Shown: positions 18,001-21,000 of the stretch, piece by piece
How the letters are laid out: each line of letters starts with the position of its first letter
Numbering within the stretch: position 1 is the first letter of the stretch
Source of the DNA: Nitrospirota bacterium
GTDB lineage: Bacteria > Nitrospirota > Thermodesulfovibrionia > Thermodesulfovibrionales > Dissulfurispiraceae
Direction: 5' to 3'
Length of the DNA: 64,000 nucleotides
Assembly: GCA_963790025.1 (NCBI GenBank)
Contig: CAWBMP010000002.1
Location: forward strand, 96,001 to 160,000
Program-made: the position numbers

Positions 18001-21000
18001 CAGCCTTTGCAATAGCCTTGAAATGGAGGAAAAGACCCTCTTGCGTAGGTTTATTATAATACGGCGTAACGATCAGGGCTGCGTCGGCGCCCAGTTTTTG
18101 GGCCTTCCTGGTGATTTGTATCGCCTCATCCGTCGAATTGGCTCCGGTGCCGGCAATAACCGGTATTTTTTTATTAGCGGCTTTTACAGCGACCTCGATG
18201 ACCCGGTAATGCTCATCAAAGTCAAGGGTAGCAGCCTCTCCAGTAGACCCGCAAGGCACAATGCCATGGGTGCCCTCAGTGATATGCCAATGGATCAGAT
18301 TACGGTAGGCCTTTTCATCAAATTTACCTTCCTTAAACGGTGTTACCAGTGCAACGAAGGAACCGTTAAACATGTACGACCTCCTTCAAAAAATAAGCTG
18401 TGGGCCATCAGTAAAAAAACTACCACTCGCCACCTAATAACCCATGTACTGTATTATATATTTTAATTCTGCGTTTTCCTATGGCCTCTCTTTTGTGCCT
18501 TGCTCCCGGCGCCTCTTGTCCATCTTTTGTTTTTTTCAGATAAGCATCAGTCCGGCCTTGGATTTATGTTCCAGTTTGATATTCCAAATTACCACAGCGG
18601 ATTTTAGTACTGACAGGCCGTCTTCTGTTAGGAAAAAAATAACTTCACCAGGTTTCAATTCTATATCACTAATAAGACCGACTCCTCCCTCACTCATATC
18701 GATGCAGGTACCCTTATAAATCTTATCCTTCGACTCTCCCTTCTTGCGAAAATCGAGTTGGGTTTGGCATACCTCTCGCTGATGTCTCCTTTGGTCTGTT
18801 CTCTTCTGCGCAAGATTCTTAATCCTGCCCTCAAAGACCTCCACAGCAGGACCCGTCATATATACATGGTTATCTTCAGGCCAATCTACAGCCAGGTCTC
18901 CTCCCGGGAGATGTATCGTGACGTTCCTGTCTGTGAGACCTTTCAGCATTGCAGCCACCGCAGAGGCCGACGCACCTGTTCCGCATGCCAGGGTCTCCCC
19001 TGCTCCCCTCTCCCATACCCTCATCTTCAGTTCCTTCTTATTTAGTACATTAACGAACTCGACATTGGTTTTATTAGGGAAAAGAGGATGACTCTCTATA
19101 TCAGGCCCATAAAAGGACACCGGGAATTCGGTAACGTTTTCATCTATAAAAATTACCGCATGGGGATTTCCCATCGAAACACAGGTAATTTTAAAAACGT
19201 GGTCACTGATTTCCAGAGGGTAATCAATGACAGAAGCAGCAGATCGGAGTGTCACGGGAATCTTTTCAGCTTCCAGTACCGGCTCCCCCATATCAACCTT
19301 TACCAGATTCCCGATACGTTCAGGCCGTATTATGCCGGTGAGAGTTTCAATTTCCAAAACATCCTTAACCGAAAGCTTCCTGTCCCAGATATACCTGGCA
19401 AGGCATCGTATGCCGTTGCCGCACATCTCGACCTCGCTGCCGTCAGCATTGAATATTGCCATTTTAAAATCAGCCATGGCCGAGAAATATAGCACCAGGA
19501 GCTGATCAGCGCCAATGCCGAATCTCCTGTTGCAAAGAAACCGGGCGAGTTCTCCTATATCAAATAGTCCGGAGATATTAAGTTCCCTGCTATCAATGAC
19601 TACAAAGTCATTCCCGGCACCGTGCATTTTACAAAAAGTAAGTTCCATGGTTAAATCAATTTAGGAATGCTCTCGCCCTTTACAAGGTCGCCGTAAGTCT
19701 CTCTCTTTCTTATTAGCGAACAGGTTTTGCCCTTTACGAGCACCTCCGCCGCCCTTGTGCGGCTGTTATAATTTGAAGACATGGCAAATCCATATGCCCC
19801 TGCACTCATCACAGCGAGATATTCACCCTGCTTGACGCTCTGTATTTCCCTGTTCAATGCCAGAAAATCTGCAGACTCGCATATAGGGCCTACTATATCC
19901 GCAAATATCTTCTCTTTTCTGTTTTTCAGCACGGGCTGTACGTGGTGATATGCACTGTAAATGGAAGGTCTTATGAGATCGTTCATCCCGGCATCAACAA
20001 TAACGAAATCCTTATCATCACCTTTCTTAATATAAAGGGTCTTTGTCACCAGAATGCCTGCATTGCCTACGATTGACCTGCCGGGTTCTAAAATAACAGT
20101 AATTTTTCTTTCTTTAAGCAAAGGCAGAATATTCCTGGCAAGCTGCGATGGATTTGGGGGCGTCTCGTCATAATACGTGATACCCAGTCCGCCGCCGATA
20201 TCAAGATATTCTATATTTATGCCGTGCTTTACCAGTTCATCCATAAGCGACAGTATCTTTTTGAGTGCATCGACAAACGGAGAAACTTTGGTAAGTTGAG
20301 AACCAATATGCTTGTGAATGCCTACGATGGCTATATTTTTCATACCGAGCGCAAGATTGTAGTACTCAAGAGCATTCTCCATAGGTATGCCGAATTTGTG
20401 CTTCCGCAACCCTGTAGAAATATAAGGATGTGTCATCGGGTCTATATCAGGATTGATCCTCAATGCAATCGGCGCTTTCACCTTCATTCTGCCGGCAATT
20501 CTGTCGATTCCCCGCATTTCATCCTCAGATTCTACGTTAAACATTAGAATCTTGCTTTTCAGCGCATAACGAATCTCTTCCTCAGTCTTGCCTACACCGG
20601 CATATACTATCTTATGGGCCGGAATGCCGGCTTTAAGCGCCCTATAAATTTCTCCGCCAGAAACCACATCCGCTCCGCTGCCGTTTTTTTTAAACAGTTT
20701 TAAAAGCGCACCGTTTGAGTTGGCCTTGAGCGCATAACAAATAAGATTTGGGAATCCGCTGAATGCATCTTTATAGGCCTTAAAATGCCGAGTCAGCGTA
20801 TTATAGCTGTAAACGAAAAGGGGTGTGCCGAATTTGGCGGCAATATCCTTTACCGGCACATCTTCAGCATACAACTCTCCGTCTCTATAGTTGAAAAGAT
20901 GCATATAACTCATCCTACTGGTTTGATTTTAGTATATTTTTTAACATAATGAGCAGGTTAATGTCAAAGGCAACAGGCTATAGGGTATTGTAACCTGGAG

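Follow-up and report, generated by a model that had tools for sequence, protein, structure and literature searches.

A diaminopimelate epimerase with a C-terminal PilZ barrel points to possible c-di-GMP control of cell-wall precursor supply in Nitrospirota

Results

Organization of the dapF locus

Within the 64,000-nt window (the whole stretch of DNA analysed here), diaminopimelate (DAP) and lysine genes lie on the minus strand in the order lysA, dapF and dapA, as the survey's finding had described. The diaminopimelate decarboxylase gene lysA (19651..20913, minus strand; TIGR01048, 528.6 bits) stops 2 nt before the epimerase gene, and dapA, encoding 4-hydroxy-tetrahydrodipicolinate synthase (17501..18373, minus strand; TIGR00674, 374.2 bits), starts 162 nt downstream of it. 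Between the two, 18536..19648 (minus strand, 370 codons plus stop) forms a single frame that encodes a full DapF followed by a C-terminal PilZ barrel, an architecture that the survey had proposed and that frame translation, Pfam and NCBIfam all reproduced. By eye, no PilZ remnant was seen in the 162-nt spacer before dapA. Next comes a gene for a protein of the AhpC/TSA-Redoxin family whose N-terminus includes a hydrophobic stretch (16835..17455, minus strand), and a gene of this family likewise follows dapA at the loci of relatives (L020, L021, L022, L024 and L025). A search of 16000-24500 against Rfam (E ≤ 0.1) returned neither a lysine nor a c-di-GMP riboswitch and one chance microRNA match, while promoter and terminator scans stayed at chance level (9 promoter-like sites against 6.3 expected; 5 terminator-like sites against 5.0).

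The survey had left the start ambiguous between forms of 363 and 370 amino acids. The 370-aa start M1 is favoured over the shorter gene call because its ATG falls 2 nt past the lysA stop, the first strand of solved DapFs is matched by residues 2-14, and orthologue N-termini read MEL.F.KM.G.GNDF. Enzyme and barrel are connected by a linker (residues 278-291; 18776..18817, minus strand) that the AF2 model renders as a short helix (279-284) and then a low-confidence loop, with a mean pLDDT of 60 for the block 281-290; its sequence, EKRxEQRRHQR, is conserved among fused proteins.

A complete and single-copy epimerase

The 370-aa protein matches DAP_epimerase in Pfam in two stretches (E 5e-64), and these are the only ones in the whole genome, which is 98.8% complete; dapF is accordingly single-copy, as previously stated. 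The DapF domain (residues 1-277, two DAP_epimerase halves; 18818..19648, minus strand) scores 300.6 bits with the DapF equivalog TIGR00652, whose cut-off is 114.65, and spans model positions 2-269 of 270. In a sequence search PDB entry 9mro, a DapF, matches residues 2-277 at 8e-81, and no solved DapF aligned past residue 278. Identity to the closest of the solved DapFs is 49%. The predicted two-domain fold (AF2, pLDDT 90.9) agrees with solved DapFs in Foldseek (9mro at 7.3e-35; 8qzy with TMt 0.92 and rmsd 1.9), which, along with the equivalog score and both catalytic cysteines, upholds the survey's reading of a complete enzyme.

Cys76 (in MCGNG; 19421..19423, minus strand) and Cys222 (in ACGTG; 18983..18985, minus strand) are invariant in our alignment A4, and we take them to have the catalytic roles of Cys73 of Haemophilus influenzae and Escherichia coli DapF and of Cys217, respectively. 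Together with N13, Q49, N67, G77, N78, N161, H163, N195, E213, R214, G223 and T224, substrate-binding positions known from work on H. influenzae DapF, they make up 14 key positions, and 12 of the 13 fused proteins retain every one of these. Alignment offsets also make the two cysteines equivalent to Cys73 and Cys217, one per domain (PMC6061791). By offsets to 274-aa DapFs, Phe272 (18833..18835, minus strand) occupies the position of E. coli Tyr268, which is described as lying at the dimer interface of an enzyme whose catalysis is dimer-dependent (PMC6061791); the tail departs from the enzyme five residues after Phe272. As the genome search found DapL above its cut-off and no Ddh, and dapF occurs once, the fusion product is the only predicted route from LL-DAP to meso-DAP in this cell.

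A minimal PilZ barrel with both c-di-GMP motifs

The PilZ domain (residues 286-370; 18539..18793, minus strand) was delimited with PF07238, AF2 and VIA-align as a six-strand barrel (292-369) that has no C-terminal helix. Translation places the first c-di-GMP motif, RxxxR, at residues 287-291 (RRHQR; 18776..18790, minus strand) and the second at residues 317-322 (DMSEGG; 18683..18700, minus strand), so that the survey's statement that both are intact holds; the second follows the definition [D/N]hSxxG given in 10.1101/814665 and lies on the barrel, in the range of roughly 20-30 residues past RxxxR that is expected of it. Using the whole protein, Pfam matched PilZ at residues 286-361 (E 1.2e-6) with 29.2 bits, and the tail alone scored 32.8 bits, both above the gathering score of 22.5. 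The match spans profile positions 2-77 of 102, and PF07238 recognizes 24 of 26 subfamily members. RxxxR is kept in all 26 rows of alignment A2, and RxxxR and DxSxxG occur together in each of the 16 fused tails, spaced by 23-26 residues (26 in the protein described here); in two free relatives (G131 and G014) T replaces S in the second motif.

The barrel strands are confidently modelled (292-302, 311-318, 322-327, 336-340, 347-358 and 363-369; pLDDT 92-94), and the protein stops at residue 370, one residue past strand 6. A typical PilZ core has a long C-terminal α-helix behind the barrel (10.1101/814665), so the earlier label of a canonical PilZ domain is right for the motifs and the six strands and wrong for the helix. 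The closest structure is c-di-GMP-bound PA0012 (VIA-align Z 11.4 over 79 of 85 residues, with an rmsd of 1.9 Å), all of the top 10 VIA-align matches are PilZ domains (Z 8.1-11.4), and the best Foldseek matches of the tail are PilZ/c-di-GMP complexes. From the motifs and the modelled fold we predict that the tail binds c-di-GMP. It evolves under purifying selection, with dN/dS of 0.15-0.33 compared with 0.11-0.26 for the DapF core, in a genome that holds 16 GGDEF and 8 PilZ matches.

Fused and free PilZ domains among relatives

Of the 118 genomes of the order with a dapF match, 39 have a PilZ of the same subfamily directly behind dapF (lysA-dapF-pilZ-dapA), mostly as a free gene of ~92 aa, and no PilZ was found behind dapF in the other 79; one order genome (G045) allowed no call, its contig breaking off after 304 nt of the stretch. 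This cluster membership, free or fused, spans seven families of the order. A broader dapF-pilZ arrangement is thereby newly recognised, with the DapF-PilZ fusion as one of its forms. The free-standing relatives of ~100 aa mentioned by the survey do exist, yet they are not scattered: they sit between dapF and dapA. In the phylum sample (116 of 141 genomes outside the order), subfamily PilZ domains (E ≤ 1e-12) were detected in 15 of the outside-order genomes, and in none of the 15 was the gene adjacent to dapF.

The survey had named one additional genome with the fusion (G006), which proved more widespread: fused frames are present in 3 of the 120 other genomes sampled from the order and in 14 of the 67 others from the family. 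Counted over family genomes with a dapF match, the fusion occurs in 15 of 64, in 6 genera, and three of these 15 also retain a free PilZ copy. Two further figures of the survey changed, the tail identity of G006 being 45% instead of 50% in the present alignment and a word search with the tail (residues 270-370) giving 5 clusters instead of 21. With the whole protein, among the best 120 of 1452 matches, 39 clusters cover 98-100% of the 370 residues; where public names are given for these near-full-length relatives they read only "diaminopimelate epimerase", which leaves the sensor domain invisible in names. An exhaustive representative search with the tail, a query blind to any DapF fused to an unrelated PilZ, returned 23 matches, one of them fused and 13 others free PilZ proteins of 89-114 aa. 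As a lead only, the nearest ESM Atlas clusters are plain DapFs at 0.80.

Where the genes are split, the pilZ start falls within -10 to +55 nt of the dapF stop at 15 of 16 loci, and 12-32 nt separate it from dapA in 13 of 16; being equally near dapA, the gene does not point to DapF by adjacency itself. Fused and free forms swap among the near-identical DapFs of close relatives, and all 16 fusions seen are joined to DapF and none to dapA. The lineage can do without the module, since dapF is plain and without a neighbouring PilZ in G156 (same genus) and G166, and in G143 PilZ is reduced to a 26-position remnant. In a second fused copy in G167, 6 of the 14 key DapF positions are lost and the PilZ motifs are kept. 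The PilZ tree, built without the truncated G121 row, needs 3 changes, of which starred branches force only 1, and one clade of all fused forms remains compatible with the AU test (p 0.39), which suggests between one and three fusion events.

Predicted contacts between PilZ and DapF

For a relative with separate genes (G043), we modelled DapF, the one partner tried, together with the genome's own free PilZ and two c-di-GMP molecules. The predicted complex scored 0.63 and the best control 0.00, with contact agreement between runs of at least 81% and partner pLDDT of at least 83. Of 157 solved complexes 116 attained this mark, as did 2 of 215 mismatched pairs; these counts are only a rough guide because our own alignments were used and a ligand was included. 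In the model the barrel packs against DapF residues 122-139, 234-241 and 257-260, in the Cys222 domain; the DapF positions at this predicted interface revealed no pattern separating PilZ-linked from PilZ-less DapFs. The full-length fusion model has a pTM of 0.72 and a low-confidence linker and thus does not fix the arrangement in cis, and sequence and fold searches of the PDB returned no DapF-PilZ complex.

Discussion

A proposed mechanism for c-di-GMP control of DapF

Overall, the most likely explanation of these data is a c-di-GMP-responsive DapF, controlled in cis where the PilZ domain is fused and in trans where it is free. We put the probability at a little over one half, roughly 55%, that the protein is a working DapF whose C-terminal minimal PilZ barrel binds c-di-GMP and regulates the epimerase. 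In the mechanism that we propose, the RxxxR linker, which begins ~10 residues past the last DapF strand, would be clamped to the barrel by c-di-GMP. Docking of the barrel onto the C-terminal (Cys222) domain would follow and change the domain closure and/or the dimer required for catalysis. The free PilZ of relatives would act in the same way in trans, as MapZ does on CheR1. The survey's proposal of a c-di-GMP link to DapF gains from the dapF-pilZ-dapA adjacency, the fused/free exchange and the complex model; what we infer in it is that the ligand binds, that it affects DapF catalysis and not another product of the operon, and which way the effect runs. The more specific version, in which c-di-GMP directly sets the balance of LL-DAP and meso-DAP through a PilZ clamp, fused or free, that sits on the C-terminal domain of DapF beside the dimer interface and switches the sole epimerase of the DapL pathway, is tentative and less likely than not. 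As to direction, our guess, with only a slight lean, is that high c-di-GMP throttles meso-DAP and lysine supply rather than activates it.

The same PilZ domain might bind c-di-GMP and yet be directed at DapA, which performs the committed step, at LysA or at an assembly of these enzymes, DapF being just the gene upstream to which pilZ was joined when a stop codon was lost. Such a target would suit the short distance from free pilZ to dapA and the one to three fusion events, and in several split loci the dapF stop and pilZ start are 0-3 nt apart or overlap, which would make fusion a cheap accident; we nevertheless consider it unlikely, as the fusion is held by purifying selection in 6 genera, in all 16 cases seen to DapF and in none to dapA, and as the free PilZ-DapF model, the one pairing tried, scores well above its best control. 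The fusion might also be no accident of biology at all and stem from assembly or gene calling, a stop having been dropped or the frame shifted between dapF and the free pilZ that commonly lies directly behind it in this order. An unbroken frame in 15 genomes from separate assemblies, the 39 clusters from several sources among the best 120 of 1452 matches, and the conserved linker of the fused proteins leave next to no room for this.

Two other readings keep the fusion and alter what it does. DapF could serve as a scaffold in a non-catalytic job, with c-di-GMP and PilZ steering the binding of a partner or its location. E. coli DapF offers a parallel, as it binds the RNA pyrophosphohydrolase RppH and stimulates this partner whatever DapF's own dimer state (PMC6061791), and RppH-DapF complexes (6d13 and 6vck) are among our Foldseek matches; moreover, the second fused copy in G167 indicates that a non-catalytic DapF-PilZ can persist. 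This role is improbable for a gene that is the only dapF, keeps every key residue and sits inside a DAP/lysine cluster, and no partner was identified. Alternatively, the tail may have kept the PilZ fold and lost its response to c-di-GMP, taking another ligand instead or merely stabilising the enzyme. Its missing helix, its modest Pfam E-value and the T for S in the motifs of G131 and G014 would be in keeping with such decay, which is just as hard to reconcile with canonically spaced motifs in every fused tail, with a nearest structure, PA0012, that is equally short and c-di-GMP-bound, and with the 16 GGDEF matches of the genome.

Significance

Regulation of DapF by c-di-GMP would extend direct control by this messenger to meso-diaminopimelate, a cell-wall cross-linking residue and lysine precursor. 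If so, a lifestyle messenger would tune peptidoglycan stem-peptide chemistry, cross-linking and lysine supply through the stereochemistry of a precursor, and DapF would be the first PilZ-controlled enzyme of amino-acid and cell-wall precursor synthesis, conserved across a Nitrospirota order. A 2025 review lists c-di-GMP effectors in motility, secretion, exopolysaccharide and transcription and a few enzymes, and the terms "peptidoglycan", "cell wall" and "metabolic enzyme" are absent from it (PMC12564702). Our literature searches, like the survey's, found no paper describing a DapF-PilZ link, and the fused sensor, together with a free sensor gene beside dapF in relatives, suggests that cell-wall precursor supply is under a form of control that is not yet described. 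Because nature supplies both split and fused pairs, regulation could be tested in cis as well as in trans, using soluble, expressible proteins and an established coupled assay.

Comparison with known systems

Stand-alone DapFs (TIGR00652; 9mro, 8qzy, 4ijz and 1gqz) share both cysteines and the two-domain fold with the fusion protein at 41-49% identity and TMt up to 0.92, whereas the latter has ~93 additional C-terminal residues, comprising the linker and the PilZ barrel. In BcsA (4p00, 9fnn) PilZ is likewise C-terminal to an enzyme, one under its control, with RxxxR in the linker beside the catalytic body, and Foldseek (2.8e-4) and VIA-align (Z 9.5) both pair the tail model with the PilZ domain of BcsA. 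By comparison, BcsA is a membrane glycosyltransferase for exopolysaccharide and the fusion a soluble enzyme for an amino-acid and peptidoglycan precursor, and no equivalent of the BcsA gating loop is known in DapF. MapZ on CheR1 (5xly, 5y4r) places a single-domain PilZ on an enzyme; the free ~92-aa operon PilZ proteins of relatives are also single-domain, and one of them is predicted by the complex model to dock on the DapF encoded beside it. MapZ is among the Foldseek matches of the tail, its target is a chemotaxis methyltransferase in contrast to the biosynthetic DapF, and to our knowledge there is no fused MapZ-CheR1 form. This single-domain adaptor binds CheR1 when loaded with c-di-GMP (PMC12564702).

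The nearest relative of the tail in structure, PA0012/TssZ of Pseudomonas aeruginosa (8u0i), is an 85-aa, stand-alone, minimal barrel with bound c-di-GMP, although it is only 18% identical and is tied to motility and T6SS phenotypes, not to DAP genes, in the 2025 review (PMC12564702). The same review offers a precedent for direct action on a soluble metabolic enzyme in GlgX of Streptomyces venezuelae, which c-di-GMP activates; GlgX differs in being a function-specific effector that takes c-di-GMP at its C-terminus, is listed apart from PilZ proteins and acts in glycogen breakdown (PMC12564702).

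The fused gene and its locus

The fused gene (18536–19648, minus strand) is a single 370-codon frame in which Pfam recognizes DAP_epimerase as two stretches (5e-64) and PilZ over residues 286–361 (E 1.2e-6; 29.2 bits, gathering score 22.5), while the NCBIfam DapF equivalog TIGR00652 scores 300.6 bits over residues 4–277 against a cut-off of 114.65. Exact-codon translation places RRHQR at residues 287–291 and DMSEGG at 317–322, with Cys76 and Cys222 present, bearing out the survey's finding of a full DapF extended by a C-terminal PilZ domain with both motifs intact. The longer start (370 aa) is the better one, since residues 2–14 align to strand 1 of solved DapF structures, this N-terminus is common to orthologues, and the ATG lies 2 nt past the stop of the upstream lysA (TIGR01048). 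Downstream, dapA (TIGR00674) starts 162 nt past the fused gene.

Directly past dapA, a protein of the AhpC/TSA-Redoxin family, hydrophobic at its N-terminus, is encoded at 16835–17455 (minus strand). Such a gene recurs past dapA in five stretches cut from compared genomes (L020, L021, L022, L024 and L025), and thus the conserved cluster consists of lysA-dapF(-pilZ)-dapA plus a thiol-disulfide oxidoreductase-like gene. An 879-aa frame 187 nt upstream of lysA (21101–23740, minus strand) has weak dCache, PAS, HisKA, HATPase and receiver domains, which give it the look of a hybrid sensor kinase; the immediate neighborhood contains no GGDEF or EAL domain. On the opposite (plus) strand, two frames at 14954–15949 and 15901–16743 share 49 nt in their listed coordinates; both look, by eye, like ATPase subunits of ABC transporters bearing Walker A motifs (GESGCGKS).

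An intact and only epimerase

Along its whole length the DapF portion corresponds to solved DapFs, both in sequence (9mro, 8e-81 over residues 2–277) and in a Foldseek search with the predicted fold (9mro, 7.3e-35; 8qzy, TMt 0.92; mean pLDDT of the AF2 model 90.9). Of the 13 fused proteins compared, 12 keep all fourteen key positions, which we take to serve catalysis or substrate binding. As the survey had stated, dapF is single: one DAP_epimerase gene occurs in the 3.45-Mb genome (98.8% complete). The genome also encodes a DapL-type LL-DAP aminotransferase (619.8 bits; cut-off 593.25), and no meso-DAP dehydrogenase was found in it, so that under the established pathway meso-DAP and lysine can be reached only through DapF.

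Fold and constraint of the PilZ tail

In the full-length AF2 model, the tail (C-terminal linker plus PilZ) forms a six-strand barrel at residues 292–369 (block pLDDT 92–94), preceded by a short helix (279–284) and a low-confidence loop bearing RxxxR; folded alone, it gives the same barrel. The nearest structures found by Foldseek were PilZ domains (BcsA, PP4397, YcgR, PA0012, MrkH, MotI and MapZ), as were the top ten by VIA-align, where PA0012 aligned over 79 residues (Z 11.4, rmsd 1.9 Å), and most of the nearest solved structures are c-di-GMP-bound. The barrel lacks the C-terminal helix that Galperin and Chou (10.1101/814665) include in the typical PilZ core, making the tail a minimal PilZ like PA0012. 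With 16 GGDEF and 8 PilZ matches in the genome, c-di-GMP is evidently in use in this bacterium.

Both motifs are kept in all 16 fused tails, spaced 23–26 residues apart. In an alignment of 26 sequences of the tail subfamily, RxxxR does not vary, nor do the Ser and Gly of the second motif; Thr replaces this Ser in two free relatives outside that alignment (G131 and G014). For pairs with unsaturated dS, Nei-Gojobori dN/dS was 0.15–0.33 for the tail versus 0.11–0.26 for the DapF core.

Linkage of pilZ to dapF across the order

A dapF match was present in 118 of the 121 Thermodesulfovibrionales genomes sampled. Linkage was first scored by pairing dapF positions with matches to a profile of the tail subfamily, which placed a PilZ directly past dapF in 37 genomes; scanning the stretch downstream of dapF in the other 81 with the same profile (one, G045, not judgeable because its contig ends) added two, for 39 of 118. 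By family, the arrangement was seen in 8 of 12 genomes of the window's own family, f1, and in 6/10 (f2), 5/11 (f6), 10/11 (f8), 7/11 (f11), 2/9 (f12) and 1/1 (f13), with none in the samples of f3, f4, f5, f7, f9 and f10. The gene order is lysA-dapF-pilZ-dapA, and the PilZ is mostly a free gene of about 92 aa. Its start lies between −10 and +55 nt from the stop of dapF in 15 of the 16 measured loci, and its end 12–32 nt before the dapA ATG in 13 of 16. In one genome (G119), two tandem free PilZ frames of 94 and 123 aa, falling in different groups of the PilZ tree, lie between dapF and dapA. Among the 116 genomes outside the order in a 141-genome phylum sample, 15 hold a subfamily PilZ at E <= 1e-12, and in none of these does it adjoin dapF.

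Fused forms, losses and origin

In the window's family (68 genomes, 64 with a match), 15 genomes in six genera have a fused frame. Three of them (G006, G133 and G086) also have a free pilZ directly behind the fused gene, and the genus of G006 and G133 includes three species with only a free pilZ beside a nearly identical dapF. Seven of the eight genomes of the window's genus with a dapF match are fused. Nested inside this fused clade, G156 has a plain dapF followed after 22 nt by dapA, with no close PilZ elsewhere in its genome; G166 has a plain dapF directly before dapA, and G143 retains a PilZ remnant, a 41-aa frame matching only the last 26 profile positions. These three are close relatives that lost the PilZ module. 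Thirteen fused tails form one group in the PilZ tree (support 91/88), with those of G161/G162 and G086 outside it in an unresolved fork, and a single origin of the fusion was not rejected (AU test, p 0.39). Most simply, these patterns reflect an ancient duplication and fusion within the family, after which one or other copy was lost; such a history implies that the two forms are interchangeable.

Among the best 120 of 1452 matches to public proteins, 39 clusters cover 98–100% of the 370 aa, 31 of them with a precomputed PilZ, and their source names, where given, read only "diaminopimelate epimerase"; an exhaustive search with the tail alone (50% clustering) returned one fused representative. 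The 15 genomes and 39 clusters exclude an assembly artefact for practical purposes.

A second contig of G167 encodes another fused protein (L118:1501–2631, minus strand), which lies away from dapA and shares 53% identity with the window protein. It retains the two cysteines and the two PilZ motifs but differs at 6 of the 14 key positions (N161G, H163Q, N195D, E213G, R214K and G223S) and has CNRNDF in place of GxGNDF; it may be a non-epimerase or a paralogue with changed substrate, or it may be foreign (G167 has 3% contamination). In G161 the DapF match falls in two stretches of one 420-aa frame, suggesting that about 30 residues have been inserted, and in G157 a frameshift or assembly error puts the N-terminal part of DapF in a different frame; both PilZ tails are intact.

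Predicted contact and proposed mechanism

A model of the free PilZ of G043 with its neighboring DapF and two c-di-GMP scored 0.63 (0.62–0.64 in three runs), the best of three controls 0.00; 116 of 157 solved complexes attain this mark, as do 2 of 215 mismatched pairs, a comparison that is only rough here given our own alignments and the included ligand. Contact agreement was at least 81% and partner pLDDT at least 83. PDB search results contained no DapF-PilZ complex, so the score is unlikely to reflect a structure that the predictor had already seen. The modeled DapF contacts (residues 122, 125, 137–139, 234–237, 241, 257–258 and 260) all lie in the C-terminal (Cys222) domain, where the catalytic helix 223–235 ends, facing the subfamily's conserved PG turn, AIVxW strand and C-terminal strand of the PilZ. 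Both ligand motifs are free of the interface, and the DapF positions in it do not differ between PilZ-linked and PilZ-less DapFs.

Here an intact, sole DapF is joined to a constrained PilZ bearing its ligand motifs, in a linkage conserved in split and fused form. As elsewhere among PilZ proteins, c-di-GMP would lock the loop bearing RxxxR to the barrel, and because this loop starts about 10 residues past the last DapF strand, ligand binding should draw the barrel onto the enzyme. DapF domains close around the substrate, and the signal could travel through this closure. It might also travel through the dimer: in the E. coli enzyme Tyr268 forms a stack over the two-fold axis, and the Y268A variant is a monomer without detectable activity, according to PMC6061791, which cites Hor et al. 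2013. The equivalent in the window protein is Phe272, which precedes the linker by five residues. Sequence does not reveal in which direction the effect goes; we lean, at roughly three to two, toward inhibition of DapF at high c-di-GMP.

Other readings share these observations. The PilZ may have DapA, LysA or the set of enzymes as its target, or the tail may be blind to c-di-GMP. DapF may also be a scaffold that serves a different partner, as E. coli DapF does in its complex with RppH; as the degenerate second copy in G167 shows, a DapF-PilZ can persist without being catalytic.

Relation to known PilZ systems

The survey had found no description of a link between c-di-GMP and cell-wall precursor supply, and full-text searches brought up none. 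No report of PilZ with diaminopimelate epimerase was found in the literature outside subscription-only papers and database architecture pages; for c-di-GMP or PilZ with DapF, diaminopimelate or lysine biosynthesis, the matches listed were all unrelated papers, judged partly by title or the start of the abstract. The words "epimerase" and "enzym" are absent from the PilZ survey 10.1101/814665, as are "peptidoglycan", "cell wall" and "metabolic enzyme" from a 2025 effector review (PMC12564702). The principle itself is already known, from BcsA, where PilZ regulates an attached enzyme, and from MapZ-CheR1, where it regulates a partner enzyme; two things appear to be new: the output, which is a soluble enzyme on the pathway to DAP, lysine and cell-wall precursors, and the linkage of pilZ with dapF in operons across the order.
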